The notes under the pieces: model-generated
Seen by the model: only the letters and a program-made list of their open reading frames with translations
Databases searched by the model: none
Told to the model about the DNA's origin: nothing
Part shown: positions 3,132 through 55,806 of the stretch, one piece after another
How the letters are laid out: each line of letters begins with the position of its first letter
How positions within the stretch are numbered: position 1 is the stretch's first letter
From: an uncultured Elusimicrobiaceae bacterium
Lineage (GTDB): Bacteria > Elusimicrobiota > Elusimicrobia > Elusimicrobiales > UBA9959
Length of the DNA stretch: 64,000 nt
Assembly: GCA_964417965.1 (NCBI GenBank)
Contig: CAYQJX010000002.1
Span: 80,486-144,485 of the forward strand
Direction: 5' to 3'
Made by a program: the position numbers and the translations under genes

Positions 3132-3244
3132 TTCAGTTCCGGATATGTGAGGCTTTGAAATGGGGTTGTGTGCTGGTTGAATTCCGCGGGCGCAATGGAC
3201 GCAGTATGTCAGAAGACTGTCTCCCCCGGCACATTCGGAGTGGT

Positions 3245-25000: not shown

Positions 25001-25069
25001 CAATCTTTTTTATCATGTTAAAATATAACTGCAGCCTTGTCGTTAAAAACGCGGACAAAGGACGTCAAC

Positions 25070-25621: not shown

Positions 25622-25625
25622 GCCG

Positions 25626-26040: not shown

Positions 26041-26069
26041 TTGAAATTATTAATATTTTCTGCTAGACT
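26041..26069 (+). promoter_or_regulatory. Putative sigma70-type promoter at the head of the rSAM locus
   Basis: ttgaaa (26041-26046), 17 nt, tagact (26064-26069), within an AT-rich 120-nt intergenic region. Confidence 0.35.
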
Positions 26070-26134
26070 ATAACAGCGCATTTGGGTGCGGCGCTATTTT
26101 GCGCCTTTGGGACGGTCCCAGCGGGGGAGGTTCT

Positions 26135-26954: not shown

Positions 26955-27416
26955 TTGGACAACAGGATCGCAACCGTTAAGGTAGACCTTAAAAAATACA
27001 GCCTCGACGCCGCGCGCTACGCGGCCTACGCCCTGAGCGGCGAGGCTTTCGTTTTTATCAGCCGCGCCGGCGCCGCAGCCGTGGCCGTGTCGCTCTCGCC
27101 TAAAGGCGGCGGGTCCGGAGCCGCCCTGAAGGGCAAGTTCCTGGCGGAACTCGAGGATGAAAAACTGCGGGAAAAAATTGCCGCCGAGAACCGGGAGCTC
27201 AGGGAGTTCCTGACGCTGAAGGCGCTCTCCTCCCCGACCCCGGCCCCGGTCCCGGATTCCGGGCTTACCCCGGACCAGGAAAAAGAGCTGGCCGACCTTA
27301 TTTCCCAGGTCGAGAAAGAAATTAAAGAGGACGTCCGCGGAGGAGCCGCGGACCCGCTGGGGCTGACGAGCACTTGGGAAGACAAGTATGGCGCAAAAAA
27401 AGCCCGTAAAAAATAA
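26955..27416 (+). CDS. hxsD: HxsD-like small protein (copy 1)
   Basis: 153 aa. Contains KKYSLDAARYAAYALSGEAFVFI and FLAELEDEKLREKI..., which resembles the LLNDYxLRE-type signature I recall for HxsD. Overlaps the start of the HxsB-like gene. Confidence 0.55.
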   Translation: MDNRIATVKVDLKKYSLDAARYAAYALSGEAFVFISRAGAAAVAVSLSPKGGGSGAALKGKFLAELEDEKLREKIAAENRELREFLTLKALSSPTPAPVPDSGLTPDQEKELADLISQVEKEIKEDVRGGAADPLGLTSTWEDKYGAKKARKK

Positions 27417-28842
27417 GAAAACCGCCAGGACGCCCCTGGCCCGCTGGGAGCGGGTGGCCGGCGGCCGCCTGCTGACCAACGATTCCGGCTGTCACGCCCT
27501 GCTGGGCGAGAAGGATTTCGCGCGCGCCGTGGCCGGCGGCATTACCAAGAAGGACCCGCTTTTCAAGCGTCTTTCCGCCGCTGGCTTCATCAGGGAAAGC
27601 ATGGATTTCGAGGGCCTGGCCGCCAAGTGGCGCACCCTTAACGCCCACCTGGACCAGGGGCCCGGCCTGCACATCCTGGTGCTGACCCTCAGGTGCAACC
27701 ACAAGTGCCTCTACTGCCAGTCCAGCGCCGCCGGCGAGGGCGCCAAAAAGACGGACATGGACCGCAGGACCGCGCTGGCCAGCGTGGATTTCGCTTTCAC
27801 CTCCCCCAACCCGCTGATAACCATAGAATTCCAGGGCGGGGAGCCGCTGCTGAACTGGGAAGTGCTGAAGGCCGCCGTCAAGCGCGCCCGCGAAAAGGCG
27901 GCGGCTACCGGCAAGGAACTCAAGCTGGCGCTGGTCTCCAATTTTACCCTGATGACCGAGGAGAAGGCCCGCTTCCTCCTCGAGAACGAGGTCTCCATCT
28001 GCACTTCGCTCGACGGCCCGGCGGACCTGCATAACAGGAACCGGATCTTCGCCGGCGGCAACTCGCACGCCGCTACGGTGCGGTGGATAAAGTATTTCCA
28101 GGAAAAGCACGCGCGCCAGTCGCAGCCGTACCGGGTCTTCAAGCCCGGCGCGCTGCTCACCGTGTCCCGCCAGTCCCTGCCCCGCTGGAAGGAGATCATC
28201 GGCGAGTACGCCAGGCTGGGGCTGGAAGATATCTTCGTGCGGCCGCTGGCCCCGATCGGCTACGCCCGCGGCCTCTGGGACAAGATCGGCTATACGCCCG
28301 AGGAGTTCCAGGAATTTTACGGCCGCTGCCTGGACCATATCCTGGCCCTTAACCGCCGCGGCACGGTCATGCGCGAAAAAACCGCCGCCATGATGCTGGA
28401 GAAGATCGTCAACGCCACCGAGCCCGGCTACCTGGACGCGCGCTGCCCCTGCGGCGCGGCCATCGGCCAGGTCGCCTATAACTATAACGGCGACCTCTTC
28501 ACCTGCGACGAGGGCCGCATGGTCGGCTGGGAAGGCGACGATATTTTCCGCGTCGGCAACGTCTTCCGGGACAACCTGCGCAAAATTCTTTCTTCCCCGG
28601 CCGCCCGCGCCTGCGTGGTGGCCTCCAATCTTGAGGCCCAGCCCGAATGCTCGCGCTGCGCCTATAAGCCCTACTGCGGCGTCTGCCCCGTGTATAACTA
28701 CGAGGCGCAGGGCTCGCTGTGGGGCAACATGCGCTCCAACGGCCGCTGCCGGCTGTTCAAGGGCGTCTTCGCCGCTATTTTTGAAAGGCTGGGCAACGCC
28801 CGTGACAAGAAAGTGCTGGAGAGCTGGGTGGCAAAAAAATGA
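27388..28842 (+). CDS. hxsB: Radical SAM/SPASM maturase, HxsB-like (paralog 1)
   Basis: CNHKCLYC and FQGGEPLL. Full SPASM Cys set: CPCG...GDLFTCDEG...CSRCAYKPYCGVCPVYNY...GRC. ~95-aa N-terminal extension. Confidence 0.8.
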   Translation: MAQKKPVKNKKTARTPLARWERVAGGRLLTNDSGCHALLGEKDFARAVAGGITKKDPLFKRLSAAGFIRESMDFEGLAAKWRTLNAHLDQGPGLHILVLTLRCNHKCLYCQSSAAGEGAKKTDMDRRTALASVDFAFTSPNPLITIEFQGGEPLLNWEVLKAAVKRAREKAAATGKELKLALVSNFTLMTEEKARFLLENEVSICTSLDGPADLHNRNRIFAGGNSHAATVRWIKYFQEKHARQSQPYRVFKPGALLTVSRQSLPRWKEIIGEYARLGLEDIFVRPLAPIGYARGLWDKIGYTPEEFQEFYGRCLDHILALNRRGTVMREKTAAMMLEKIVNATEPGYLDARCPCGAAIGQVAYNYNGDLFTCDEGRMVGWEGDDIFRVGNVFRDNLRKILSSPAARACVVASNLEAQPECSRCAYKPYCGVCPVYNYEAQGSLWGNMRSNGRCRLFKGVFAAIFERLGNARDKKVLESWVAKK

Positions 28843-29156
28843 AAAAGCAGACTGACGCGAAAGAAATAACTTTTGATTCCGCTGTCTATTCTAAAGAGGC
28901 CGTAGAGCTGGCGGCCTATGTCTTTGCCGGGCGCTGCGGCGTAAAAGTTTCGCCCGGCAAGAGCGCTTCGGTCGCGCGGCTGTCCGGGGGCGCGGAGCTT
29001 GACCGGCTGGCCGGGGAGTTCGCCAACGAGGCGCTCAACCAGCAGTGCCGCATAGACCTGGCAAAAAAGAATTCCAAGCTGGCCGGCATGATAGTGACCA
29101 AGGCGCTGTTGTCGGCCTGCGGCGAAACCAAGCCGCGCTTACGGGGGAGCAAATGA
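28839..29156 (+). CDS. hxsD: HxsD-like small protein (copy 2)
   Basis: 105 aa. Contains DSAVYSKEAVELAAYVFAGRCGVKV and EFANEALNQQCRIDLAKKNSKLAGMIVTKAL, the same pattern as copy 1. ATGA overlap with the hxsB-like stop. Confidence 0.5.
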   Translation: MKKQTDAKEITFDSAVYSKEAVELAAYVFAGRCGVKVSPGKSASVARLSGGAELDRLAGEFANEALNQQCRIDLAKKNSKLAGMIVTKALLSACGETKPRLRGSK

Positions 29157-30217
29157 AAAAATCAGTGGTAATCGCTATCGTCGGGCTGCTGGCCCTGGTG
29201 CTGTTCCTGCAGTATCTGCAGAGGCGCAATGTCGCCCCCGCGCTGCCCGCCGGCCAGGCTACGCCCGCGGCCGAGGCTCCGGCGGGCATCCCCCTGCCGG
29301 CCGAGGCTACCGTCTACGCGGCCCAGCCTTCGCAGGAAACGCGGCCCTCGGCCCCGATAAAGGCCCCGCCCTCTTCTATCTTCAGAGCTCCGGCCGAGAT
29401 GGCCGGCGCCGGCCCGCTGCCCACCATCAACGCGGACTTCGCCCGCGCCCCGATAGGCTACACCGGCAAAACCCTCAACGGCATCCTCTCCTCCCACGGC
29501 AAGGTCTGGGGCAACGCCACCTTCGGCCCGGATGTCTTCACCAAGGAAGAGAACGACGCCCTCTACAGCCTGCTGGCCCAGTTCTTCTCCTGCAACGCCG
29601 TCGCCTACGGCGACCTGAACATGTGCAACTTCCTGCCGGGGGCGCTGACCAAGAAGGATAAATATTTCTGGAGCCCGCACTACGCGTGCATGGACCCCGC
29701 CAGCCGCGTGCTCTTCTACGCTTACGCCGCCGGCCGGTTCAACGTCAACGGCGAGTCGGTCTGCCGCAAGTATCTAGCGGGGGACAGCGTGGAAGGCGCC
29801 AAGGTGCCGCCGGAATTCTGCCGCGAGGTGTCCAAGGGTTTTTCTTATATCTGCGACATGGCCCCGGCCCGCGACCGGAGCCGCTGCCGCGAGGCGTTCC
29901 CCGCCGACAGCCGCAACTGCAGGACCCAGGACTGCATGGACAACAACAGGCTTTACCTCTCGCTCCGGGACAACAACATTTCCGCCTGCCCGGAGAAGTA
30001 CATGACGGAGTGCGGCGTTTTCTCCACCAAGTCCGGTTCGGTCTGCTCGCTCATACTCGACAAGATCGCCGGCACTTTCGCCCAGACGGAGGCGACGCAC
30101 GAGCAGAATATGAGCCCCGAGAAAAAGAAGCGCCTCGAAGAGGCCCGCAAGAAAGAAGAACAGAAAATAATAGAAGACGTGAACAAAAACGCCAGGAAGG
30201 CCTTGGGTAAGGATTGA
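29153..30217 (+). CDS. Membrane-anchored Cys-rich protein (12 Cys), unknown family
   Basis: The start at 29153 gives MKKSVVIAIVGLLALVLFLQYL (TM anchor). A Pro/Ala-rich linker follows, then a domain with 12 Cys (FFSCNAV, NMCNF, YACMD, SVCRK, EFCRE, YICDM, SRCRE, RNCRT, QDCMD, SACPE, TECGV, SVCSL). The tail is charged and helical. Confidence 0.7.
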   Translation: MKKSVVIAIVGLLALVLFLQYLQRRNVAPALPAGQATPAAEAPAGIPLPAEATVYAAQPSQETRPSAPIKAPPSSIFRAPAEMAGAGPLPTINADFARAPIGYTGKTLNGILSSHGKVWGNATFGPDVFTKEENDALYSLLAQFFSCNAVAYGDLNMCNFLPGALTKKDKYFWSPHYACMDPASRVLFYAYAAGRFNVNGESVCRKYLAGDSVEGAKVPPEFCREVSKGFSYICDMAPARDRSRCREAFPADSRNCRTQDCMDNNRLYLSLRDNNISACPEKYMTECGVFSTKSGSVCSLILDKIAGTFAQTEATHEQNMSPEKKKRLEEARKKEEQKIIEDVNKNARKALGKD

Positions 30218-30228
30218 AGGAGCCGGCC

Positions 30229-30561
30229 ATGAAAAAGAAAAAACCCGGAGTAAAAAAGAACATAAAGCTCTTCCTCAACAGCGAAGAGGGGAAGATGCTC
30301 GACGCCGACATAGTGAAGGCCGGCCTCGCGCTGGGCATACTCGGCGCGGCGATGGTGGACCAGGCGAGCGCGCAGACCATCCACCAGAACTACTTCTACC
30401 CGCCGGCCGACCCGACCTCGCACGTCAGCCACCAGAGCCACGGCAGCCACGGCTCGCACGGCAGCCACGGCTCGCACGCCTCGCACGGCAGCCACGGCTC
30501 GCACGGCAGCCACGGCTCGCACGGCAGCCACGGCTCGCACGCCCGCGGCGGCTGGTGCTAG
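30229..30561 (+). CDS. hxsA: His-Xaa-Ser repeat protein (putative rSAM-modified precursor)
   Basis: RBS aaggag (30217-30222) precedes the ATG at 30229. The sequence reads MKKKKPGVKKNIKLFLNSEEGKMLDADIVKAGLALGILGAAMVDQASAQ, then TIHQNYFYPPADPTS, then 13 HxS triplets, then HARGGWC and stop. Confidence 0.9.
   Translation: MKKKKPGVKKNIKLFLNSEEGKMLDADIVKAGLALGILGAAMVDQASAQTIHQNYFYPPADPTSHVSHQSHGSHGSHGSHGSHASHGSHGSHGSHGSHGSHGSHARGGWC
30421..30543 (+). repeat. In-frame 9/18-nt tandem codon repeat encoding (His-Xaa-Ser)13
   Basis: The cacggcagc/cacggctcg units alternate Ser codons AGC and TCG. The 42-nt block cacggcagccacggctcgcacggcagccacggctcgcacgcc occurs twice (30439-30480 and 30502-30543). Confidence 0.95.
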
Positions 30562-30634: not shown

Positions 30635-30654
30635 CCCGCCCCCCGGCGGGTTTT
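30635..30654 (+). terminator. Small terminator/attenuator-like hairpin between hxsA and the next rSAM gene
   Basis: cccgcc-cccc-ggcggg followed by tttt, ending 2 nt before the ATG at 30657. A second hairpin, cccgcg-N9-cgcggg, lies at 30580-30600. Confidence 0.35.
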
Positions 30655-30656
30655 CG

Positions 30657-31754
30657 ATGAACACCATCCCCCAGGAACTAGACATCTGCGTCTCCAACCA
30701 GTGCAATATGCGCTGCCGCTACTGCTATTCCGGCGGTCTCGACCGCTCGCGCGCGCAGCGGCTGGACCTGCGCCGGATGAAGCTGGCCGTGCTGCAGTAT
30801 CTGCGGGCCGCCGGCCCGCGGGCCGAGAAGATAAGCATCTCGGGCGGCGAACCGCTGCTGGACAAGAAGCTGCTGGCCGCGCTGCTGCCCTGGCTGCGGC
30901 GCACGGCCGGGCCGGCCATGGAAATAGAATGTTTTTCCAACGGCCTGCTGCTGGACCGCCCCACGGCGGAGCTGTTCCGCCGCAGCGGCGTGCACCTGAA
31001 GATAAGCCTGGACGGGGCGCCGGCCAGCCAGGACCTGAACCGCGTGGACGCCGGCGGCGCTCCGAGTTCCGCCCGGGTCGCGCGCAGCCTGAAGGCCCTG
31101 CCGCCCGGCCTGCGCCGGAGCCTCGGCCTCTCGGCCACCGTGACGCGCGCCACCGCGCCCCGGCTTGCCGAAAATATTAAATTCCTGGCTTCGCTCGGCG
31201 CCGGCGACCTGGGGCTGTCTTTCGCGGTGCAGGAGAGATGGACGCGCGCCGACCTGGCGGGCTTGAAGCGCGAGCTGCTCGCCGCCCGGGCCTGGCTTAA
31301 GGGCGCCGGCCGCGGGGCTTTCAAAGACAGCCCGAGGTTCGGCTACAAGCTCATGCGGGCGGGTAAGCCCTGGCTGGAGAGTTTCTGCGGCCAGGGCGAG
31401 ATCTCGATCGGGCCCGACGGCCATTTTTACCCCTGCTCCATGCTCTCCGCTTCCAGCGTGGCCCAGGAGCCGGCGCTGCGCGCCCGCTACGCGGCGGGCG
31501 ACTGGCGCACCGGCCCGGACCTCGCGAAGGTCAGGGCGTCCCGGGAAAAAATTTTCAGGGCGGTCATGGCCGGCGGGCGCCGCGAGTTCCTGGGCTGCCT
31601 GCTCTGCATCTATTACAGCAGCCTGCTGCACGGCGGAGACCTTAAAGCCATGCTGAAGAGCAGTACGGATATCGTCCGGCTGCTGCGCGCCACCGGGATG
31701 GGTTCAGGCAACCCGGACGTGCCGCGCCCCCGGCTGGCCGGGGCGGCCCGGTGA
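30657..31754 (+). CDS. Radical SAM enzyme, AslB-like with partial SPASM/twitch region (paralog 1 of 3)
   Basis: CNMRCRYC and ISGGEPLL. The C-terminal region has FCGQGEISIGPDGHFYPCSML and LGCLLC. Confidence 0.8.
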   Translation: MNTIPQELDICVSNQCNMRCRYCYSGGLDRSRAQRLDLRRMKLAVLQYLRAAGPRAEKISISGGEPLLDKKLLAALLPWLRRTAGPAMEIECFSNGLLLDRPTAELFRRSGVHLKISLDGAPASQDLNRVDAGGAPSSARVARSLKALPPGLRRSLGLSATVTRATAPRLAENIKFLASLGAGDLGLSFAVQERWTRADLAGLKRELLAARAWLKGAGRGAFKDSPRFGYKLMRAGKPWLESFCGQGEISIGPDGHFYPCSMLSASSVAQEPALRARYAAGDWRTGPDLAKVRASREKIFRAVMAGGRREFLGCLLCIYYSSLLHGGDLKAMLKSSTDIVRLLRATGMGSGNPDVPRPRLAGAAR

Positions 31755-42668: not shown

Positions 42669-43739
42669 ATGAACTCATTGCTTGAAAAGAACGTAAAGTT
42701 CGCGACCGGCAGAACGCCCGGCCTGAACAAGGCCGTCCTCGCGGCGCGCCTCGCCAATATCCGCTGGCCCGTCAGCCTTAAGGCCCGGGTCTGCGAGGTT
42801 ACCGTCAATTCCGCCTGCAACAACCGCTGCCTGTTCTGCTACGCCGAACCGGGCTCCTTCGCGAACGGCCCGGAGCCCTCTCTGGAAGAGATCTTCAAGG
42901 CCCTCTACACGGGCCGCCGGCAGGGCTGCTGGATAGCCGCCGTTATAGGCGGGGAACCGACGCTGCGCGGCGATATCGACAAGGTGGCCTCCTTCGCCCG
43001 GAAGGCCGGCTACTCCTGCATAAAACTCTGCACCAACGGCGCGCGCCTGGCCGACCCGGCCTACGCCCGCCGCATGGCGGCCGCCGGCTTCAACATGTTC
43101 GACGTCTCCCTGCACGGCCATACCGCCCGGCTGCATGACCGGCTGGTCGGCGTGCCGGGCGCTTTCGACAAGGCCGTGCGGGCCATACGCAATGTCCGGG
43201 AGCTGGGCCGCGAGGCCGGCACCAACCTGGTAATAAACGCGCTGAACTATAAGCAGTTCCCGGAGTTTATGGACTTCGCCTATAACGGCCTGGGCGTCAA
43301 CTATTTCAATATCATCTACGGGCATTACCGCGGCGTGATGGCCTGCAACGAGAAGCTGCTGCGCGTGAATATTTCCAAAACCCTGCCCTGCATAATCAAA
43401 GGGATGGAAGTCTTTAAAAAGTCCGGCGTTCCCGCGCTCAACCGCGTGCTGGTCAACTTTACCCCCTGCCTGCTGCCGCGCCATATGAACCTCCTGGCCG
43501 ACTGGGAGTCCGACATTTCAGAAGGCGATCCCCTGATGCCGGCCGACGGGGCCGTGGTGAACATGGCCGAGATGAAGAACCGGCAGAGCTGCAAGCCCGC
43601 CGGCTGCGCGCGCTGCGCTCTGGACGCGCGCTGCCGAGGTTTCGACGCCGAATATATAAAACTCGCCGGCGGCCGGGAGTTCAAGCCGCTGGCAAAAGCG
43701 CCGCGCTCTTTCGCGGTAAAGACCCTTTTTGAGATATGA
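42669..43739 (+). CDS. Small radical SAM enzyme, HxsC-like paralog 1 of 7
   Basis: CNNRCLFC, GGEPTLRGD, SLHGHTARLHDRLVGVPGAF. The C-terminus is CARCALDARCRGFDAEYIKLAGGREFKPL. Confidence 0.8.
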   Translation: MNSLLEKNVKFATGRTPGLNKAVLAARLANIRWPVSLKARVCEVTVNSACNNRCLFCYAEPGSFANGPEPSLEEIFKALYTGRRQGCWIAAVIGGEPTLRGDIDKVASFARKAGYSCIKLCTNGARLADPAYARRMAAAGFNMFDVSLHGHTARLHDRLVGVPGAFDKAVRAIRNVRELGREAGTNLVINALNYKQFPEFMDFAYNGLGVNYFNIIYGHYRGVMACNEKLLRVNISKTLPCIIKGMEVFKKSGVPALNRVLVNFTPCLLPRHMNLLADWESDISEGDPLMPADGAVVNMAEMKNRQSCKPAGCARCALDARCRGFDAEYIKLAGGREFKPLAKAPRSFAVKTLFEI

Positions 43740-44797
43740 TCAAGCCCCGCAACTGCGAAGTCATCCTGAACTACGACTGCAACGCCAAATGCAGGTTCTG
43801 CTATCACCCGGAATCGGTGCTGAACCAGGTGGCGGAGCGCATGCCTTTCGCCAAGGCCGCCGAGGCGCTGTACAAGGGACGCCGGGAAAAATGCTGGGTG
43901 GCCTACCTGATAGGCGGCGAGATCACCATGCGCCCGGACCTGCCTAAGATTGTGCGGATAGCGCGGGACATGGGTTACCCCTATGTGCAGGTGATGAGCA
44001 ACGGTCTCAAGCTGGCCGACCCGGCTTACGCCAGGGAACTGGTGGAGGCCGGGGCCAATATTTTCCGCGTCTCGGTGCACGGCCCCGACGCCGCCACCCA
44101 CGACCGGCTGGTGGGCGTGCCGGGCGCTTTTAAAAAAGTGATGAAGGCCTTCGATAACCTCACGCGCCTTGGCGCCGAGCTCTCCGTCAACCACGCGCTC
44201 AACAAACAGAACTATAAGAAATTGAAGCCCCTGCTGGAGATCATCAGCGGGCGCTTCGGTATAGAGGATTTCAACGTGATCTTCCCGCATTACAACGGCA
44301 TGATGGCCGCCCGCGCTGCCGAGCTGAAGGTGAGCGTGATGCAGGCCGTGCCCTATGTGCGCGAGGCGCTGGCCTATCTTAAAGACTCCGGCGCGGAGAT
44401 CGAGGACACGGTGCTGGTGAACTTTACGCCCTGCAATCTCCCGGAGGCCGTGCACCTGATGGCCGAATGGGAGCGCCCCGCCGGCACCAGGGACGAGCCG
44501 CTGTTCCATATCGACGGCCGCGAAGACCGCATCCACGGCCTCAAGGAGCGCCTCTGCCTCAAGAACAAGGGCTGCGCTGCCTGCGTCTACAACAAGCGCT
44601 GCATGGGCTTTGAGAAATGGTATTCGGACCTCTTCGGCGCCCGCGAGTTCCGCCCCGTAAAGAAACCGGCCGAACCTTTCCCGCTGGTGCCTTCCCACAA
44701 CAGGTTGAAAAGGGCTCAGGCTTTATTGAAAGGGAAACTCGCCGGCGACGCGGGGGCCGGGTTAGCAAAACCGTCCCGGAGGCCGAGGCTTGCGTAA
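43736..44797 (+). CDS. Small radical SAM enzyme, HxsC-like paralog 2 of 7
   Basis: CNAKCRFC, GGEITMRPD, SVHGPDAATHDRLVGVPGAF, CAACVYNKRCMGFEKWYSDLFGAREFRPVKK. The last ~15 codons and the stop are supplied by repeat copy C. Confidence 0.8.
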   Translation: MIKPRNCEVILNYDCNAKCRFCYHPESVLNQVAERMPFAKAAEALYKGRREKCWVAYLIGGEITMRPDLPKIVRIARDMGYPYVQVMSNGLKLADPAYARELVEAGANIFRVSVHGPDAATHDRLVGVPGAFKKVMKAFDNLTRLGAELSVNHALNKQNYKKLKPLLEIISGRFGIEDFNVIFPHYNGMMAARAAELKVSVMQAVPYVREALAYLKDSGAEIEDTVLVNFTPCNLPEAVHLMAEWERPAGTRDEPLFHIDGREDRIHGLKERLCLKNKGCAACVYNKRCMGFEKWYSDLFGAREFRPVKKPAEPFPLVPSHNRLKRAQALLKGKLAGDAGAGLAKPSRRPRLA

Positions 44798-44866
44798 GCG
44801 CCGAGGCCGAGGGACGAGCGGCGGGCACGGTGTGTCCCGACCGCGTGTTTTGCGTTCCGGCCCCCG
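44751..44866 (+). repeat. Structured repeat family, copy C (116 nt)
   Basis: Closing stem cgggggccgg (44751-44760) / ccggcccccg (44857-44866). gttagcaaaac/gttttgcgttc and the cores gcttgcgtaagcgc and gggcacggtgtg align to the reverse complement of copy A. The stem differences are compensatory. Confidence 0.75.
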
Positions 44867-44897
44867 TGGCGCCAGGCAGACGGTTAGAGATTTATCA

Positions 44898-45980
44898 ATG
44901 AAGTTTAACAAGGAAATACTGAAGTTCAAGATAGCCGTCACTTCGGGCTGCTGCCTGAGGTGCACGCATTGCTTTATAGACAAGAGCCGCACCGAGACCA
45001 TCCCCGCTCCCGCCGCGCTGAAAGCCGTGGAGACCTTCCTGCGCTCCCCCGGCAAGACCAAGACCCTGGAAATTTACGGCGGCGAGCCGCTGATGGAATT
45101 CGAGCTGGTAAAGAAGATCGTAACCGCCGCCCGCGCGCTCGCGAAAAAACTCGGTAAGACGCTCGCCGTCTCCGTGGCCAGCAACGGCGTGCTCGCCGGC
45201 GCCGAGCAGCTGGACTGGCTGGCCCCCCGCGGCGTCCGCTTCGCCGTCAGCTTCTCCGGCAGCGGCCGCAGCCACGACCTGTCGCGCAAATTTGTTTCCG
45301 GCAAAGGCTCGCACGCCGCAGTAGAAAAGAAAATACCGCTCTTCCTCTCCAAGCTGGGAGAGGATCTCCACGTCATACTCTGCGTGCATCCGCGGCGCGC
45401 CGCGGCCGCGTACCAGGATTTCCTGCGCCTGGCCGCGGACGGCTTCCGCAATATCGGCATAGAATGTGTGCACGGCTTCCCCTGGCGGGCCGCCGACTAT
45501 AAAGCTTTCGGGGCAGCCATGAAGAAGATAACCGCCTATACCCTGGCGCATGCGGGGGACAAGTCCCCCGTGGTGCTGGAGCCGCTGCTGGAATTCCTCA
45601 GGGACAAAGAATTCAAAAATAGCTTCTGCCCTTTTCTGCGCGACCTGGAGCTGTTCCCCGACGGCACCCTCTCTTTCTATCCTTACCCTTTCCTGCGCAC
45701 TCCCGCGGAGCGCAAGGCCGCGGCCATCGGCACGGCTGAAGGGTGGGTGGCTGAAAAATATGTTTCCTGCGCCCCGGCCGCCGGTTCGCGCCGCTGCCTG
45801 GCCTGCGCCCGCTCCTATTACCGCCTGCCCGGCCTGGCCGACGGCAGCCGCGCCCACGCCCTGCGCACGGAAGTCTGCCGCGCCGCCGCGGAGGAGCTGG
45901 TGCGCAGGTCCGCCGCCGAGCCAGGCCTGAAAGCCTACCTGAAGCGGCTGATAAAACTTTTCAAGAAGGGTTACATCTGA
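44898..45980 (+). CDS. Radical SAM enzyme, AslB-like (paralog 2 of 3)
   Basis: The start at 44898 gives MKFNKEILKFKIAVTSGCCLRCTHC. Also YGGEPLMEF. The C-terminal Cys are CAPAAGSRRCLAC. The upstream part of the track ORF is encoded by the repeat. Confidence 0.75.
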   Translation: MKFNKEILKFKIAVTSGCCLRCTHCFIDKSRTETIPAPAALKAVETFLRSPGKTKTLEIYGGEPLMEFELVKKIVTAARALAKKLGKTLAVSVASNGVLAGAEQLDWLAPRGVRFAVSFSGSGRSHDLSRKFVSGKGSHAAVEKKIPLFLSKLGEDLHVILCVHPRRAAAAYQDFLRLAADGFRNIGIECVHGFPWRAADYKAFGAAMKKITAYTLAHAGDKSPVVLEPLLEFLRDKEFKNSFCPFLRDLELFPDGTLSFYPYPFLRTPAERKAAAIGTAEGWVAEKYVSCAPAAGSRRCLACARSYYRLPGLADGSRAHALRTEVCRAAAEELVRRSAAEPGLKAYLKRLIKLFKKGYI

Positions 45981-47371
45981 TGGCGAAGAGGGACGACCGC
46001 CCCATGGACTTCAACTTCGCCCGCCGCGGCGGAGGCAGGCTGCTGTCCAACGACTTTTCCATGACCGCGGAGCTGACAGCCGCGGGGTTGGCCCGTTTCG
46101 CCAGCGGCGCGGCCCTGCCGCCCGCCATGGATAAAGCGCTGGAGGCCAAAGGTTTCTTCGCCGGACGGCTGGATTTCGCCAGGCTGCTGCCGCGGCATTT
46201 CGCGGCCCTGCTGGCAGATTGGAAAGGCCCTAAAGTGCATATCGTAGCCGTGACCGCCGCCTGCGACCACGCCTGCCTTTATTGCGGCGCCTCGTCCGGC
46301 TCCGGCGGGCGTCACATGAGCCGCGCGACGGCTAAAAAAACGCTGGATTTCATCTTCAGCACCGGCGCGCCGGAGCTGGTTATAGAGTTCCAGGGCGGTG
46401 AACCCCTCCGCAATTTTGAAGTGGTGAAGTATCTGGTCGGGGAGGCCAAACGCCTCGCGGCGCGGCAGGGCCGCGGCCTGCATTTCTCCATGGTCTCCAA
46501 CCTGGCCGGGCTTACTTCGGAGAAGCTGGCTTTTCTTGCCGCTAACGGGGTTACGCTCTGCACCTCTCTCGACGGCCCCGCGGCTATCCATGACCGCGGC
46601 CGCAAATATTCCGGCGGTTCCAGCCACGCCGCCGCCGTCCGCGGTATAGCCCTGGTGCAGAAACTCGCGGCGGCCGGGGAGCTGGAATCTCTTAACGCCA
46701 TCTGCACCATCACTAAGTATTCCCTGGCGCAGCCGAAGGCAATAGTGGACGAATTTTTAAAGCGCGGCGTAAAGCGCGTGCAGCTGGGCCCGCTGGAGCC
46801 CATTGGCCGCGCCGCCCGCGCGGGCCTGGGCGTGACCCCGGAAGAATTCCTCGCTTTCTACGCCGAAGCCCTGGAGTACATGCTGCGCCTGAACCGGAAG
46901 GGCGTGGAGGTGTACGAGAAGGGCGCGCTGATGTTCCTGGGTCAGATGCTCGGCGGCGAACGCCCGCGCTACCAGAACCTGGACCTGCTCTACCGGCTGG
47001 CCTACGGGCCGGACGGTTCCGTCTACGGCTCCGACGAGGCGCGCCTGCTGGCCGCCGGCGGCAACGAATTTTTCAGGCTGGGGTCCGTGGCGGACTCTTT
47101 CTGCTCGCTGGCGTCCTCCCCGCTGGGCCGCACGCTGATCCTTTCCTGTTTTCCGCGGCTGACGCAGCCGCGCTGCGCGCGCTGTCCGCACAGCGCCTGG
47201 TGCCGGGTGTCCCCGGTGTATAACCACGCGGCGCAGGGCGGTTTCTGGGGCGACATGATGACCAACGGCCGCTGCCGGGTCTTCATGGGCGTCTCGGACC
47301 TGCTGCTGGAGAAACTGAAGACCCCGGCGTCGCGGAAAATACTGGAAGGCTGGGCGGAGAAATATCAATGA
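45980..47371 (+). CDS. hxsB: Radical SAM maturase, HxsB-like (paralog 2, degenerate SPASM)
   Basis: CDHACLYC and FQGGEPLRNF. In the C-terminal region several SPASM Cys present in paralogs 1 and 3 are replaced (NLDLLY for CPCG, GSDEA for TCDEG, CRVSP for CGVCP). Confidence 0.75.
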   Translation: MAKRDDRPMDFNFARRGGGRLLSNDFSMTAELTAAGLARFASGAALPPAMDKALEAKGFFAGRLDFARLLPRHFAALLADWKGPKVHIVAVTAACDHACLYCGASSGSGGRHMSRATAKKTLDFIFSTGAPELVIEFQGGEPLRNFEVVKYLVGEAKRLAARQGRGLHFSMVSNLAGLTSEKLAFLAANGVTLCTSLDGPAAIHDRGRKYSGGSSHAAAVRGIALVQKLAAAGELESLNAICTITKYSLAQPKAIVDEFLKRGVKRVQLGPLEPIGRAARAGLGVTPEEFLAFYAEALEYMLRLNRKGVEVYEKGALMFLGQMLGGERPRYQNLDLLYRLAYGPDGSVYGSDEARLLAAGGNEFFRLGSVADSFCSLASSPLGRTLILSCFPRLTQPRCARCPHSAWCRVSPVYNHAAQGGFWGDMMTNGRCRVFMGVSDLLLEKLKTPASRKILEGWAEKYQ

Positions 47372-49530
47372 AGGCCGCTATGGACATAGAAAGGCTGCTG
47401 GCCTGCGCCGACAGGGACTCCCTGCCGGAGGCTCCGCCCAACTACCCGCCCATGGCGGCCTGGCCGGAGCTGCGCGGCACGGAGAAAATAATTTCAGCCT
47501 GGCGGCGTTCCCTCAAATCCGACGGCGGCCGCAGGCCCGTGGTCTACGTGCACGTGCCTTTCTGCGAAACCCTCTGCCGCTTCTGCGGCTTCTATAAACT
47601 CCCGGCCGCGCCCGGCGCGGTAGACCGCTTCCTGGACGCGCTGGAGAAAGAAATAAAGCTCCTGGGGCCGCTCTTCAAGGGCCGTCCGCTCAGGTTCCTG
47701 TGCATAGGCGGCGGCACGCCCAGCCTGCTGACCATAGCGCAGCTGGACCGGATGTTTAAAATGCTGCGGGCTTATTTTAAAGTCACGCCCAAGACCCGCA
47801 TAGCCTTCGAGGCCAGCCCGAATACGCTGGACCCGGAGAAGCTGGCCTTCCTGAAGTCCGCCGGCGTGGAATGGCTGGCCATCGGCGTGCAGAGCTTCGA
47901 CCCCGCCCTGCTTAAAGGCCTCAACCGCCGCCAGGACCCGGCGCAGACGGTGGCGGTTATAAAGCAGGCCAAGGCCGCCGGCATAAAGCAGGTGGAGGTG
48001 GACCTGATGACCGGCCTGCCGGGCCAGACCGGTGAAAGTTTTCTGCGGGACGTCCGCACCGCGGCCGGGCTGGACGTGGAACGCGTCTATCTTTTCGATT
48101 TCCAGCCGCGCTGCGGCACCTCCGCCGGCGAGCAGGCCGGCTCGCTCAAGCGCGGCGCGCTGGAGGACGCCAGGGCCTGGCGCCGCCGGGGCATGGATAT
48201 TTTAGTGTCGAAGGGTTATAAAATGCGCTGTGGGCACTGGGTTTACAAGCGCAAGGGCGACTGGTGGCCCTACAGCTACGACCAGGGCGAGGAAGGGTCC
48301 TACTCGGTGCTCGGCCTGGGGCCCAGCGCCGTGTCCTACGCCATGAACGCCGCCCGCTACCGCAGCGTTTCCGACGAGAAGGTTTATGAGAGGACGCTGG
48401 CAGGCGGCGCGCTGCCGCCCGCCGCGGGCTGCCTGCTGAGCCAGCGCGACGAGATGGTGAACTTCGTGCTGCTCGACGCCCTGCACCGCGGGCAAGTCGA
48501 TAAGAGAAATTTCCGCCGCCGTTTCGGCCGTGGCCTGGCCGAGGTCTTTGGCGGCGAGATAAAGGCCGCCAAGGCGGCCGGTCTGGCCGCCGACTCCGGC
48601 CGGGCGCTGCTGGTGACGGACAGGGAGCGGGCCACGGTGGAGCTGCGCGGCGCGCTGTACTCCCCGGAGGTGCTGGAGCGCCTGTCGAAAATTTACGGCC
48701 GCGGGAACGCTCCCGGGCATGAGCGGCCCGCGGCCGCACCCCCGGCCTTCAACCGGCAGGCGGAGCACACTCATGAATGCCGCCTGCAGGCAGGGGCGCT
48801 GGAGGCGCTGCTTTACGGCGCGTCCCCCGGGCCGGCCAGGGCGGGCAGGGACCTGGCCCTGGAGCTGCTGCGGGCCGCACGGGCGGGGAGGAAAGAAGCC
48901 CTGCTGCTCTCGGGCGCGGCTTTGCCCGGCCTGGCCGAGATAGAGGCGGCGCGCTACGCGGCCGGAGCCGGTTTTAAAAATATTTCGCTGTTCTCCCGCC
49001 TGCCGGCCGGGGCTGATTTCTTCAGGAACCTGAAGGCCGCCGGGGTTTCCGGTTTTCTCTTCAGGTTCGGAGCTGTTGTGTCCAGGGAAGAGCTGGCCGC
49101 CGTGAAGGCCGCCGCCTCCTCCGGGCTGGAGGCCAGTGGCGTCTACGTGCCGGGCTCGGCGGCCTCCCGGGGCGCTCCCGCAGCCATGAAAAAACTTTCT
49201 GCGGCCGGAGCCGCCGGGTTTATAGTCTCCTTTCCGGAGGGCAAGGAGAATATAACCGCCGATTACGCGGCTCTCGTGCCGCTGGCGCGCGCCGCTGGCC
49301 GGCTGGGCGCGAGCTTCCTCCGGGCCCCGCTCTGCGTGCTGTACCCGGACTGGGAGCGCTCGCTGGACTGCCTCAGGGGCGGCCAGGGCGATGCCCGCGA
49401 ATCCGGCGGCAGCGCCGGGGCGGTAAAGCCCAAGCTCTGCCTGCAGTGCCGGTTCCTGCTCAAATGCCCCGGCCCGGCGCTCGGCTACGCCGAGAAATTC
49501 GGTTTCAGGGGACTTAAGACCATCAAATGA
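47368..49530 (+). CDS. Fusion of a HemN-like radical SAM domain with a degenerate HxsC-like domain lacking CxxxCxxC
   Basis: The N-terminal half has VYVHVPFCETLCRFCGFYK and LCIGGGTPSLLT. The C-terminal half aligns to the HxsC-like paralogs (LLLSGAALPGLAEIEAARYAAGAGFKNISLFSRLPAG...) and ends CLQCRFLLKCPGPALGYAEKFGFRGLKTIK. Confidence 0.75.
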   Translation: MKAAMDIERLLACADRDSLPEAPPNYPPMAAWPELRGTEKIISAWRRSLKSDGGRRPVVYVHVPFCETLCRFCGFYKLPAAPGAVDRFLDALEKEIKLLGPLFKGRPLRFLCIGGGTPSLLTIAQLDRMFKMLRAYFKVTPKTRIAFEASPNTLDPEKLAFLKSAGVEWLAIGVQSFDPALLKGLNRRQDPAQTVAVIKQAKAAGIKQVEVDLMTGLPGQTGESFLRDVRTAAGLDVERVYLFDFQPRCGTSAGEQAGSLKRGALEDARAWRRRGMDILVSKGYKMRCGHWVYKRKGDWWPYSYDQGEEGSYSVLGLGPSAVSYAMNAARYRSVSDEKVYERTLAGGALPPAAGCLLSQRDEMVNFVLLDALHRGQVDKRNFRRRFGRGLAEVFGGEIKAAKAAGLAADSGRALLVTDRERATVELRGALYSPEVLERLSKIYGRGNAPGHERPAAAPPAFNRQAEHTHECRLQAGALEALLYGASPGPARAGRDLALELLRAARAGRKEALLLSGAALPGLAEIEAARYAAGAGFKNISLFSRLPAGADFFRNLKAAGVSGFLFRFGAVVSREELAAVKAAASSGLEASGVYVPGSAASRGAPAAMKKLSAAGAAGFIVSFPEGKENITADYAALVPLARAAGRLGASFLRAPLCVLYPDWERSLDCLRGGQGDARESGGSAGAVKPKLCLQCRFLLKCPGPALGYAEKFGFRGLKTIK

Positions 49531-50423
49531 AACGCATCGACATAAAGATCGGCTTCGGCTGCAACAACATGTGCGATTTCTGCGCGCAGGGCTCCAAGCG
49601 TTATAAGGGCCCGGGCAAAAGCCTGGCCGAGATAAAGGCCGCGCTGGCGCGCGCCCGCAAGACCGGCGTGAACGCCGTGGTGTTCACCGGCGGCGAACCC
49701 ACCATCCACCCGGACCTGCTCGCCGCGGTAAAGGCCGCCAGGAAGATGGGCTACGACACCGTGCAGGTGCAGACCAACGGCCGCCGCTTCGCCTATTACG
49801 ATTATTGCCTGGCGCTCAAGAAGGCCGGCGTCACCGAGATGGGCCCTTCGCTGCACGGCTCCACGGCCGCCATCCACGAGGGCCTGACGCACGCCGAGGG
49901 CAGCTTCAAAGAAGGGGTGCAGGGCATCCTCAACTGCAAGAAGCTCGGCATGTACGTGCTGACCAATTCCGTGATCACCTCCCGCAACTACAAGGACCTG
50001 CCGGCCCTGGCCAAGCTGCTGGCGTACCTGAAGGTGGACCAGTTCCAGTTCGCCTTCGTGCACCTGGTCGGTTCCGCCTGGGAGAACCGCAAGTGGCTGA
50101 CGCCCAAAATGACGGCCGCGATGCCGTATATAAAAAAAGCGCTCGACGTGGGCCGCGCGGCCGGCCTGCACTGTTACACCGAAGCGATACCTTACTGCCT
50201 GATGAAAGGCTACGAGGACTGCGTAGCCGAACAGGTGATCCCCGAAGGCCCGGTGGCCGACGCGGACCTGTACATCGAGAGCTACGGCGACTACCGCCGC
50301 GGCGAGGGCAAAGTCAAAAGGGCCGAGTGCAAAAAGTGCGGCTGGTTCAAAGCCTGCGAGGGCCCCTGGCGCGAATACCCCGAGCTTTACGGCTGGAGCG
50401 AATTTAAACCGGTGAAGAAATGA
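49527..50423 (+). CDS. Small radical SAM enzyme, HxsC-like paralog 3 of 7
   Basis: CNNMCDFC, GGEPTIHPD, SLHGSTAAIHEGLTHAEGSF, CKKCGWFKACEGPWREYPELYGWSEFKPVKK. Confidence 0.85.
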   Translation: MKRIDIKIGFGCNNMCDFCAQGSKRYKGPGKSLAEIKAALARARKTGVNAVVFTGGEPTIHPDLLAAVKAARKMGYDTVQVQTNGRRFAYYDYCLALKKAGVTEMGPSLHGSTAAIHEGLTHAEGSFKEGVQGILNCKKLGMYVLTNSVITSRNYKDLPALAKLLAYLKVDQFQFAFVHLVGSAWENRKWLTPKMTAAMPYIKKALDVGRAAGLHCYTEAIPYCLMKGYEDCVAEQVIPEGPVADADLYIESYGDYRRGEGKVKRAECKKCGWFKACEGPWREYPELYGWSEFKPVKK

Positions 50424-51841
50424 AAAAGCCTAACCCCTGCGAACCTTTCGACCTGCGCTTCGAGCGCGACGGCGCCGGCTATATCGTCTCCGGCCCGGCC
50501 GGCGCCGCGCTGAGGCTCACCGCGGCGGAATTCTCCGCCTTCAAAGCGGGTAAGACCAGGGACGGATCGCCCCTGTATAAAAAGCTGGCGGCCGCCGGGC
50601 TGCTGCGCGGCCGGCTGGACCTGGACGGCGTGACCGCCGGCCTGGCCAAACTTTCCGCCGGAGTTTTCGCCGGCCCGGGCCTGCATATCCTGGTGCTGAC
50701 GCTCAAGTGCAACCACGCCTGCGTGTACTGCCGCGCCACCGCCGGCGGTACCGGCGACACGGCCATGAGCCGGAGCACCGCGCTGCGCTCGGTCGAGACC
50801 GCTTTCCAGTCTCCCAATCCCAGGATCTCCATAGAATTCCAGGGCGGCGAAGCCCTGCTCAACTGGGAAGTGCTCAAAGCCGCCGTCGCGCACGCCAAAA
50901 AGCTTAACCTCAAGGCCGGCAAGGACTTGGCGCTTTCCGTGGTCACCAACCTCAGCCTGATGGACGAGGCCAAGGCCCGCTGGCTGGTACAAGAAGGCGT
51001 GTCGGTGTGCACCTCGCTCGACGGCCCTGCCGCCATCCATGACGCCAACCGGCGCTGGTCCGGCGGTTCTTCCCACGCCAGGGCGGTGCGCTGGCTCAAG
51101 TATTTCAAGGACGCGGCGGCCCGCGGCGGCGGCAAAGATTCGCTGCCCTCGGCGCTGATGACCACTACCCGGCTCTCGCTCGCCAATCCCCGCGCGATAG
51201 TGGACGAATACCGCGCCCTCGGCCTGGGCGGCATCTTCCTGCGCCCGCTGTCGCCTATCGGCTACGCCGCCGGCGTCTGGCCGGACATCGGCTACGCCCC
51301 CGGCGATTTCATAAAGTTCTACCGCGCCGCCATGGCGCGGGTGCTGGAGATAAACCTCTCCGGAGAGAAGTTCGTGGAGCGCAACGCGGCCCTGCTGGGA
51401 GCCAAGCTGCTGCGCGGCGAGGACCCCAACTTCCTGGACCTGCGCTCGCCCTGCGGCGGAGCTATCGGCCAGCTGGCTTACAACTACGACGGGGACGTGT
51501 ACACCTGCGACGAGGGCCGCATGCTGGCGGCCTGCGGCGACCCGTTCTTCAGGCTGGGCAGCGTGCATAAGAATTCTTTCCCCGAGCTGATGACGGCCCC
51601 GGCGGCCCGCGTCTGCGCCATGGCCTCCTGCCTGGAGAACCAGCCGTACTGCGCCCGCTGCGCCTTCAAGCCTTTCTGCGGCGTCTGCCCCGTGCACAAC
51701 TACGCCACGCAGGGCTCGCCCTGGGGGGACATCCGCGGCGGCGGCTGGTGCGAGCTGCAGAAGGGGATGTTTAAAACCGTTTTCGCCCTGCTGGAGAACA
51801 GGAAGAGCCGCAAGGTCATAGAGAGCTGGCTGGAAAAGTGA
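50420..51841 (+). CDS. hxsB: Radical SAM/SPASM maturase, HxsB-like (paralog 3)
   Basis: CNHACVYC and FQGGEALLNWEVLKAAV. Full SPASM set: SPCGG...GDVYTCDEG...CARCAFKPFCGVCPVHNY. Long identical runs with paralog 1 (GPGLHILVLTL, LNWEVLKAAV, CTSLDGPA). Confidence 0.85.
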   Translation: MKKPNPCEPFDLRFERDGAGYIVSGPAGAALRLTAAEFSAFKAGKTRDGSPLYKKLAAAGLLRGRLDLDGVTAGLAKLSAGVFAGPGLHILVLTLKCNHACVYCRATAGGTGDTAMSRSTALRSVETAFQSPNPRISIEFQGGEALLNWEVLKAAVAHAKKLNLKAGKDLALSVVTNLSLMDEAKARWLVQEGVSVCTSLDGPAAIHDANRRWSGGSSHARAVRWLKYFKDAAARGGGKDSLPSALMTTTRLSLANPRAIVDEYRALGLGGIFLRPLSPIGYAAGVWPDIGYAPGDFIKFYRAAMARVLEINLSGEKFVERNAALLGAKLLRGEDPNFLDLRSPCGGAIGQLAYNYDGDVYTCDEGRMLAACGDPFFRLGSVHKNSFPELMTAPAARVCAMASCLENQPYCARCAFKPFCGVCPVHNYATQGSPWGDIRGGGWCELQKGMFKTVFALLENRKSRKVIESWLEK

Positions 51842-51842
51842 T

Positions 51843-52736
51843 ATGCCCGATATAGCCGTCTGGAACAAATGCGACAACCGCTGCGTCATGTGTACCAACA
51901 TGACGTCTTTCGCGCTGCAGGACAGCGGCCAGTACCGGCTGAAGGCCCAGATAGAGAAAATGGAGCGCTACTTGAAAGGCCTGGGCCGGATCTACCTGAA
52001 GAACCCCGACAAGGCGGGCTACGTCAACCTGACCGGCGGGGAGCCCACCCTGCACCCGGACTTCTTCCCGCTGCTGGCCTATTTCAGGCGCCGCCTGCCC
52101 GGCCTGCCCATAACGCTGCTGTCCAACGGCCGCCGCTTCGCCGACCGCAAGTTCGCCGCCAGGTTCGCCGCCGCGGCGCGGCCGCCCTTCGGCGCGGCCA
52201 TAGCCCTGCACGGCCCGAACGCCAAAACGCACGACCCGGTGGCCGGCGTGCGCGGCGCCTTCGGCCAGACCGTGAAGGGGCTCCAGAATCTTTTCGAGCT
52301 GGCGCCGGGCCTGGCGATAGAGATACGCATAATCCTGCACAAGAAGACCATCGCCGCGCTGCCGGCTACACTGAAATTCCTGCTGGAAAAATTCCCCGAT
52401 ACTTCCCGCTACTCCGTTACGCTGATCCATTACGAGATAGAGGGCATGTCCGAGACCAACCACAGGTCGGTGGGTCTGAAGTTCGCCGCCTCCTCGAAGG
52501 TCCTGGCTAAAGCCCTGCCGCTGATAAGGCGCTTCGCCGACCTGCGTCTTTATCATTTCCCGCTCTGCCAGGTCTCGCCGGAGCTGCGCCCGCTGTGCCG
52601 CGTCACGCTGCCGCGCGAGGACAGGGTTTACCCGCCGGTCTGCTCGCGCTGCGCCGTTAAACGGAAGTGCCTGGGCCTGATGCTGGAATATTTCAAGAAG
52701 TTCGGGGCCGCCGAACTCAAGGCGATACGGAAATGA
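51843..52736 (+). CDS. Small radical SAM enzyme, HxsC-like paralog 4 of 7
   Basis: CDNRCVMC, GGEPTLHPD, ALHGPNAKTHDPVAGVRGAF, CSRCAVKRKCLGLMLEYFKKFGAAELKAIRK. Confidence 0.85.
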   Translation: MPDIAVWNKCDNRCVMCTNMTSFALQDSGQYRLKAQIEKMERYLKGLGRIYLKNPDKAGYVNLTGGEPTLHPDFFPLLAYFRRRLPGLPITLLSNGRRFADRKFAARFAAAARPPFGAAIALHGPNAKTHDPVAGVRGAFGQTVKGLQNLFELAPGLAIEIRIILHKKTIAALPATLKFLLEKFPDTSRYSVTLIHYEIEGMSETNHRSVGLKFAASSKVLAKALPLIRRFADLRLYHFPLCQVSPELRPLCRVTLPREDRVYPPVCSRCAVKRKCLGLMLEYFKKFGAAELKAIRK

Positions 52737-55805: not shown

Positions 55806-55806
55806 T

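Follow-up and report, generated by a model that had tools for sequence, protein, structure and literature searches.

A His-Xaa-Ser repeat protein of the HxsA4 family at a conserved chromosomal locus of Elusimicrobia

The canonical HXS families, TIGR03976 to TIGR03979, reportedly go back to work by Haft and Basu in 2011. Since that year, proteins with tandem His-Xaa-Ser (HxS) repeats have been a bioinformatic curiosity, and in 2026 one subtype was found to block phage DNA entry (PMC13128918). Here, we describe a second, very different HxS subtype, which a whole phylum carries as a fixed part of its chromosome. It is represented by hxsA4, a gene in a 64,000-nucleotide (nt) stretch of DNA (hereafter referred to as the window) from an uncultured Elusimicrobiaceae bacterium (assembly GCA_964417965.1, contig CAYQJX010000002.1, positions 80,486 to 144,485). 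Judged by its sequence, the 110-amino acid (aa) product is a member of the HxsA4 family, i.e. it is of the subtype HxsA4 rather than a canonical HxsA.

The canonical HXS system, which comprises HxsA together with HxsB, HxsC and HxsD, is antiphage (Li et al., Nat Commun 2026, PMC13128918). HxsB, HxsC and HxsD are needed for N-terminal processing and periplasmic accumulation as well as for a +8 Da modification inside an HxS repeat, and defence requires every HxS repeat together with the radical S-adenosylmethionine (SAM) enzymes (PMC13128918). The peptidoglycan-binding domain of the canonical effector is likewise essential (PMC13128918). In a published survey, 99.7% of HXS systems were found in Pseudomonadota. 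Another point of comparison is provided by the radical SAM cyclophane synthases HtkB and HaaB, which connect the C2 of a His to the β-carbon of the residue two positions further on (PMC11499958).

The hxsA4 gene and its product

The gene and its immediate surroundings are organised as follows, with coordinates referring to the window.

30217..30222, plus strand: perfect Shine-Dalgarno sequence AAGGAG, read from the sequence, with the ATG 6 nt downstream
30229..30561, plus strand: hxsA4, encoding a 110-aa His-Xaa-Ser repeat precursor protein, stop codon included
30229..30291, plus strand: basic leader (residues 1-21, MKKKKPGVKKNIKLFLNSEEG), conserved, with the invariant E19-x-G21 of the family alignment at its end
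30319..30372, plus strand: 13 uncharged aa, AGLALGILGAAMV (residues 31-43), and then DQ-ASA; together a putative h- and c-region of a signal peptide
30421..30537, plus strand: array of 13 HxS triplets, in which the 9-nt unit types CACGGCAGC and CACGGCTCG alternate to give an 18-nt period
30538..30558, plus strand: C-terminal tail HAR-GGWC, from the translation
30635..30654, plus strand: hairpin rich in G+C with TTTT after it, in the gap that separates hxsA4 from the next gene, from a scan for terminator-like structures; a weakly supported candidate attenuator

The product consists of MKKKKPGVKKNIKLFLNSEEGKMLDADIVKAGLALGILGAAMVDQASAQTIHQNYFYPPADPTS, 13 uninterrupted HxS triplets, HAR and GGWC, and its reading frame ends with TAG. 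This translation confirms the open reading frame (ORF) of 110 codons, the 13 triplets and the terminal GGWC reported in an initial annotation of the stretch; the basic start, the hydrophobic segment and the A-x-A site (QASA/Q) are also present as described there. The hairpin 3′ of the gene was considered as a terminator and rejected, its fold being no better than that of shuffled sequences (z = -1.2).

hxsA4 is a genuine, conserved gene, as evidenced by its Shine-Dalgarno sequence, its high in-frame GC3 (0.91), the 349 homologues retrieved in a protein search, some of which NCBI names HxsA4 (P0008, P0031), and an identical 110-aa protein in the nearest relative, Elusimicrobia bacterium GWB2_63_22 (L007), whose HxsB is 95% identical to the one encoded here and which matches the window as a whole at ~95% identity. 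An exact-sequence look-up in a collection of 15 billion proteins did not find the 110-aa protein. In a six-frame translation, hxsA4 is the sole site in the window with at least three consecutive HxS triplets, and the longest such run in 50 shuffles of the window was two.

The protein matches the NCBIfam model NF038313 (HxsA4) with 66.6 bits and an E-value (E) of 2.7e-18 (cutoff 55), the match covering residues 7-104 of the protein and positions 4-90 of the 93 in the model. It falls below the cutoff of the HxsA3 model; apart from HxsA4 and HxsA3, its NCBIfam matches are limited to collagen-like noise, and TIGR03979, the model of canonical HxsA, is not among them. The sole Pfam match is a sub-threshold one of the Collagen repeat over the HxS array (20.1 bits, cutoff 27.2), and the Pfam search found no peptidoglycan-binding domain. 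The initial annotation had proposed an HxsA-type precursor: the Hxs type holds, given the passed HxsA4 model and the adjacent genes for HxsB and two HxsD-like proteins, whereas the absence of TIGR03979 speaks against canonical HxsA. Nothing of substance sets the product apart from the NF038313 family, whose companion HxsC4 (NF038332) is matched weakly in the window. As this family is already catalogued, hxsA4 adds a member to it rather than founding a new one, and the finding in the window is a correct re-identification at the subtype level.

How does this protein compare with its canonical counterpart? Common to the two systems are a small protein that looks exported and contains tandem HxS repeats, an HxsB above its model cutoff and HxsD-like partners; by analogy, radical-SAM-dependent maturation and N-terminal processing would be expected for HxsA4 as well. 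However, HxsA4 has only 110 aa, whereas canonical HxsA has ~190-214 aa, and its 13 repeats are located at the C-terminus with G, A or S as Xaa, whereas canonical HxsA carries about five basic repeats (HRSHRSHSSHRS...) near the N-terminus with R or S as Xaa. The mature part of HxsA4, which contains 15 His, has a pI of 7.4, compared with 10.9 for the canonical repeat segment. Canonical HxsA combines an ordinary signal peptide with a peptidoglycan-binding domain at its C-terminus, while HxsA4 lacks such a domain and, unlike canonical HxsA, has a conserved leader of 30 aa preceding its hydrophobic segment. BLASTP detected no similarity between HxsA4 and canonical (Aeromonas) HxsA. At the locus level, the gene order is D-B-D-X-A (X being the protein encoded directly upstream of hxsA4) followed by an unrelated radical SAM gene, as opposed to the canonical D-B-C-A; canonical HxsC adjoins HxsB, but no HxsC gene is located beside the first HxsB gene or hxsA4 here, the HxsC-like genes being distant and sub-cutoff. 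Lastly, the locus has a fixed chromosomal position in Elusimicrobia, whereas canonical systems are mostly found in Pseudomonadota and often on plasmids. It is because of these differences in sequence, domain, Xaa, pI and locus, together with the 99.7% share of Pseudomonadota in the published survey, that we file the ORF under HxsA4 and not under antiphage HXS.

Triceptide systems (HtkB, HaaB, GrrM/OscB) resemble the locus in their repeated three-residue motifs, which start with an aromatic residue or His, and in the SPASM radical SAM enzyme encoded beside HxsA4. The encoded HxsB shows weak similarity to the GrrM/OscB, YhhB and AmcB models. Yet HxsB constitutes a family of its own, and the sole Hxs modification measured to date, that of the canonical system, is +8 Da and not -2 Da.

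More than 100 homologues share the leader, the uncharged segment, the variable HxS array and the aromatic tail with HxsA4. Their leader follows the motif K-K-(N/D)-I-K-x-F-L-x-S-E-E-G-K, with E19 and G21 as its invariant positions; the n-region has a median length of 31 aa and a net charge of +5, and the uncharged segment a median of 13 aa. In the middle, there is a short stretch of polar residues, in many cases including an A-x-A site, and then an H-(T/S)-N-(Y/A)-(F/L) motif. The number of HxS triplets ranges from 3 to 37, and the H-x-S register is kept in every homologue; conservation of the repeat region, a point raised in the initial annotation, thus extends to the register and not to the repeat number. 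The tail is short and nearly always has an aromatic residue (RGGWC, GQW, GSW, GSY or Cys-rich variants), RGGWC being present in 27 of the 105 family members inspected. GGWC and YFYPPADP, which had been singled out as possibly conserved, turned out to be confined to one clade and to the two nearest relatives, respectively.

With its K-rich start (9 Lys within the first 30 aa), its 13-aa uncharged segment and the subsequent A46-S-A48/Q49, HxsA4 has Sec-type features, although its n-region of 30 aa is conserved. The export signal or leader proposed initially therefore needs qualification: an export-like N-terminus is plausible, with its layout kept across the family, but according to the alignment the first 30 aa are a conserved leader domain and more than the n-region of a signal peptide. 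A search with the leader only recovered the family along with this type of leader on Cys/His-rich cores devoid of HxS repeats, which suggests a wider leader family in which a portable N-terminal module would carry variable C-terminal cargo. On such non-HxS cores, the FLxSEEGK leader and a hydrophobic segment were seen in six proteins (P0142, P0143, P0150, P0151, P0153 and P0154).

Beyond Elusimicrobia, Omnitrophota and a few archaea of the DPANN group have HxsA4 homologues. When species-representative genomes were scanned for HxsB, 211 relatives were returned, nearly all of them from Elusimicrobia; the few others belong to Parcubacteria, Saccharibacteria, Azambacteria and Schekmanbacteria. One Elusimicrobiales genome (K5838_07270, K5838_02345) encodes two HxsA4 paralogues, P0056 and P0074, with RGGWC and GQW tails.

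The Hxs block and the radical SAM island

hxsA4 is part of a compact block of genes, the members of which are listed here.

26955..27416, plus strand: HxsD-like protein 1, 153 aa (TIGR03976, 41.8 bits, below the cutoff of 50)
27388..28842, plus strand: HxsB radical SAM/SPASM maturase, 484 aa (TIGR03978, 469.6 bits, cutoff 370; Pfam Radical_SAM and SPASM)
28839..29156, plus strand: HxsD-like protein 2, 105 aa (TIGR03976, 36.8 bits, and NF038315 HxsD_rel, 30.5 bits, both sub-cutoff)
29153..30217, plus strand: protein X, 354 aa, with a signal anchor, a Pro/Ala linker, an all-alpha Cys-rich domain and a basic coiled coil
30657..31754, plus strand: radical SAM protein, 365 aa, directly 3′ of hxsA4 (best NCBIfam match PapB-like, 92.9 bits, far sub-cutoff)

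The HxsB gene is located 1.4 kb upstream of hxsA4 between the genes for the two HxsD-like proteins, orthologues of both of which carry the Pfam domain PF27806 (HxsD). Protein X, an exported protein whose gene is always directly upstream of hxsA4 in this clade, evolves fast, and its 14 homologues have nine invariant and three near-invariant Cys; neither family libraries nor a PDB fold search with an AlphaFold2 model (pLDDT 63) yielded a match for it. In L003 and L004, HxsA4 is accompanied by a protein weakly similar to X. The position of the radical SAM gene directly 3′ of hxsA4 is conserved in L007, L008, L009, L023 and L050. This radical SAM protein was also considered as a candidate HxsC and rejected, as it has no similarity to canonical HxsC (E 0.19).

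The gene order of this clade (protein of unknown function, HxsD-like, HxsB, HxsD-like, X, HxsA4, radical SAM) recurs in many Elusimicrobia species; it always has a PhoH/PIN gene and a barnase-barstar pair upstream and adjoins bamA-skp-lpxD. Synteny with bamA-skp-lpxD is held across many species, with HxsB identities from 95% down to 44%. In the clade with GQW tails, HxsB is directly followed by HxsA4.

Several smaller observations concern this block. In the window, the genes for the secreted barnase-type ribonuclease and its barstar inhibitor, which are conserved in many Elusimicrobia, occupy 25037-26015, just 5′ of the Hxs genes. The apparent operon is opened by an ORF at 26099-26920, duplicated or triplicated in L010, L012 and L017, whose product is hydrophobic at its N-terminus and contains a GNVGINxxxPxxKLHVHG motif; a sigma-70-like promoter match is located at 26041-26069. 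In some genomes (L019 with L053, both on contig MGVA01000043.1, and L010 with L051), the HxsD-HxsB-HxsD genes are ~13 kb away from HxsA4, in front of which a second HxsB paralogue and protein X are found. L014 and L022 have the enzymes, and HxsA4 is absent from its usual place.

Between 27388 and 57000, i.e. in ~30 kb, the window harbours 16 radical SAM genes: three HxsB-type, one HxsC-like, five HxsC4-like, two B12-dependent, two HemN-like and three others. Those downstream of the Hxs block, together with an interspersed protease-like gene, include the following.

42669..57000, plus strand: further radical SAM block, with NCBIfam matches that are all below their cutoffs except for the second HxsB listed below
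42669-43739, 43736-44797, 49527-50423, 53881-54807 and 55807-57000, plus strand: HxsC4-like genes, NF038332 being the best or near-best match
44895-45980 and 54804-55805, plus strand: PapB-like/SPASM-type radical SAM genes, sub-cutoff NCBIfam matches
45980-47371, plus strand: HxsB-like gene, sub-cutoff NCBIfam match
47368-49530, plus strand: HemN-like gene, sub-cutoff NCBIfam match
50420..51841, plus strand: second true HxsB, 473 aa (TIGR03978, 432.6 bits, cutoff 370)
51843..52736, plus strand: HxsC-like radical SAM protein, 297 aa, abutting the second HxsB (best match TIGR03977, 161.6 bits against a cutoff of 267.9)
52733..53884, plus strand: membrane protein of the prepilin-peptidase type (A24, GxGD aspartyl protease; PF01478, 22.8 bits, just below the Pfam cutoff)

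The HxsC-like protein is 26% identical to canonical HxsC (E 5e-28), and the five HxsC4-like proteins score 88-150 bits against NF038332, which does not reach its cutoff of 500. In the A24-type protein, both catalytic Asp motifs (D23 and WPAGD96AK) are invariant; 11 of its 15 orthologues match PF01478, with a best E of 1.4e-7. By sequence, this membrane protein is a candidate leader peptidase. The module of HxsB, HxsC-like, A24-like, HxsC4-like and radical SAM genes is conserved in at least 30 loci. The radical SAM genes of the island are interleaved with genes for a glycosyltransferase, a nucleotidyltransferase, an amine oxidase and a TPR protein. Neither a second precursor-like ORF nor Tad secretion genes were seen in the island, leaving hxsA4 as the single evident peptide precursor. 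A link to the nitrogenase-paralogue radical SAM loci of Elusimicrobia (Meheust et al.) was considered and dropped: His-Xaa-Ser is not mentioned in that paper, and a comparison of window genes with family libraries, which did not extend to several ORFs, revealed nothing nif-like.

Probable maturation and possible roles of HxsA4

In our view, HxsA4 is probably the precursor of an Elusimicrobia Hxs-like maturation system, which would be modified in the cytoplasm under the guidance of its leader and then be processed and exported. Starting from the observed family membership, conservation and gene neighbourhood, we infer the following mechanism. Initially, a precursor with a two-part N-terminus would be made, comprising the basic leader KKNIKxFLxSEEGK and a short hydrophobic segment with an A-x-A site. 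In the cytoplasm, the leader would then present both the C-terminal (HxS)13 array and the subsequent GGWC to HxsB and its HxsD-like partners, and other radical SAM enzymes of the island probably act on HxsA4, too. Covalent side-chain modifications would be installed unit by unit, His-to-Ser carbon cross-links or a related change being the likeliest. Subsequently, the N-terminus would be cleaved off, signal peptidase cutting at A48/Q49 or the A24-type protease at G21, and the modified His-rich peptide would come to reside in the cell envelope, where its row of imidazoles might serve as a multivalent binder of metal ions or polyanions.

Leader-guided modification in the cytoplasm is suggested by the conserved leader in combination with the adjacent HxsB and HxsD-like genes. 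A leader-plus-core logic is indicated by the conservation of the N-terminal ~45 aa in the face of 3 to 37 repeats and by the occurrence of the leader on non-HxS cores. One His-to-Ser link per triplet would be a reasonable guess because radical SAM enzymes that link His C2 to a β-carbon are known (PMC11499958), and cleavage by signal peptidase I at A46-S-A48/Q49 would fit the 13-residue hydrophobic segment.

Several points weigh against this scheme. The gene beside hxsA4 does not encode HxsC, and the HxsC-like genes are ~21 kb away and sub-cutoff. The canonical modification, at +8 Da and not the -2 Da expected of a simple cross-link, shows that Hxs chemistry goes beyond such a link. In the 10-kb flanks of the L003/L004 homologue, radical SAM sequence appears only as the last 134 downstream bases. 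Some of the 16 radical SAM enzymes, encoded as they are among glycosyltransferase, nucleotidyltransferase and amine oxidase genes, may moreover serve a non-peptide pathway.

HxsA4 could instead be the effector of an antiphage HXS system, i.e. a matured periplasmic HxS-repeat protein that blocks phage DNA entry. The shared HxS repeats, HxsB and HxsD-like genes and the export-like N-terminal segment are in line with such a role, as is the dependence of canonical defence on every HxS repeat and on the radical SAM enzymes (PMC13128918). We nevertheless regard it as unlikely: HxsA4 lacks the peptidoglycan-binding domain that is essential in the canonical effector, has G/A/S instead of R as Xaa and a pI of 7.4 instead of 10.9, and shows no BLASTP similarity to canonical HxsA. 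In addition, the gene order differs, an adjacent HxsC is missing, 99.7% of the surveyed HXS systems belong to Pseudomonadota, and the locus sits at a fixed position beside bamA-skp-lpxD across species, unlike a mobile defence island. A PADLOC scan of the Hxs proteins likewise gave no matching model, the similarity being limited to generic radical SAM/viperin proteins.

A similarly low probability is assigned to HxsA4 as the precursor of a ribosomal peptide natural product, such as a metal binder or an antimicrobial, that is secreted and released rather than kept in the envelope. In favour of it are the leader-plus-variable-core architecture, the many tailoring radical SAM enzymes, including B12-dependent ones, the hairpin after the precursor gene and the 15 His of the mature part. 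However, no dedicated exporter or immunity gene was seen beside the precursor gene, the precursor is present as a single copy, and the locus is stable and vertically inherited across Elusimicrobia, while most natural-product clusters are patchy.

Flp/Tad type IVb prepilins offer a further comparison, sharing with HxsA4 a short basic leader with F-L-x-(D/S)-E-x-G, while an A24-family protease is encoded in the HxsA4 island. HxsA4 might accordingly be a prepilin-like (class III signal) substrate that the A24 protease cuts after G21, its product being membrane-anchored or polymerised and displaying a modified His/Ser tail. In favour of this are the invariance of E19 and G21, an in-register alignment of the leader KNIKLFLNSEEGK to that of verified Flp pilins (KLFTRFLKDESG|A), which puts G21 on the Flp cleavage Gly, and the conservation of the protease with both of its catalytic Asp motifs. 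Still, the resemblance is confined to a 13-residue motif: the hhalign match comprises 13 columns with a probability of 8% and an E of 0.004 for a single comparison, and ten leader sequences searched at E up to 10 gave noise only and no match to Pfam Flp. HxsA4 is polar after the Gly, with ~9 polar residues between G21 and a hydrophobic stretch that is short (~13 aa) and precedes an A-x-A site, a layout more in keeping with signal peptidase I, and the loci of the candidate phyla radiation and Schekmanbacteria have no A24-like gene within 8 kb. The prepilin reading is hence doubtful, and the Flp-leader resemblance may be taken as a lead rather than a result.

A bolder version combines several of these elements. 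In it, HxsA4 would have no part in phage defence; the 16 radical SAM enzymes of a vertically inherited island would act on it as their only ribosomal substrate and thereby make a core component of the Elusimicrobia envelope. The A24-like protease would cut after G21, and the product, retained or polymerised via its hydrophobic helix, would display a heavily cross-linked poly-(His-Xaa-Ser) rod. We consider this combination rather improbable. Finally, the notion of a non-functional gene that arose by low-complexity drift in a G+C-rich genome, for which the variation from 3 to 37 repeats between homologues might be invoked, has a negligible probability as it is contradicted by the N-terminal domain conserved across phyla, the curated hidden Markov model passed, the Shine-Dalgarno site, the fixed position beside HxsB and the H-x-S register kept in every homologue.

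The HxsA4 subtype has its own leader and up to 37 repeats, without a cell-wall anchor or basic residues at Xaa, and its setting combines an unusually large set of radical SAM enzymes with a prepilin-peptidase-like protease. If the repeats are modified singly, HxsA4 would be a convenient natural substrate for studying Hxs chemistry and would help to test whether HxS arrays play any role beyond defence.

The repeat array at the DNA level

In the initial annotation, the array was described as an 18-nt rather than a 9-nt repeat containing a 42-nt block in two copies. Both statements proved accurate: 30439-30480 and 30502-30543 are exactly identical, and Tandem Repeats Finder scored the 18-nt period best (143, compared with 88-97 for the 9-nt period). 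A strict alternation of the Ser codons between AGC and TCG was not observed. Their order is AGC AGC AGC TCG AGC TCG TCG AGC TCG AGC TCG AGC TCG, i.e. nine switches in 12 steps where 6.5 are expected for this composition, and clean alternation is limited to units 3-6 and 8-13.

Across the family, most arrays use TCN throughout, and strong AGC/TCG alternation is present in several unrelated lineages. Codon alternation as a selected property of the whole family was considered and rejected, with 272 changes in 54 arrays compared with 260.9 expected (pooled permutation p 0.13). The alternation is thus lineage-specific and not a family property, which leaves a selective damping of perfect repetition, as suggested initially, unsupported. 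Repeat counts from draft genomes are unreliable in this context, as public assemblies have runs of N or ends inside the HxS array (e.g. L026 at ~3051-3410 and L060 at ~5880-6460).

The other half of that suggestion, growth by internal duplication, fares better in light of the closest relatives. In L007, GGC has changed to GGT in four TCG-type units, and in L050, whose 13 repeats are the same at the protein level, four units have switched to the other Ser codon class. Single synonymous mutations cannot produce such swaps, which point to turnover and homogenisation of units. These comparisons point to a concerted evolution of the two 9-nt unit types, the 18-nt higher-order repeat having presumably spread by duplication.

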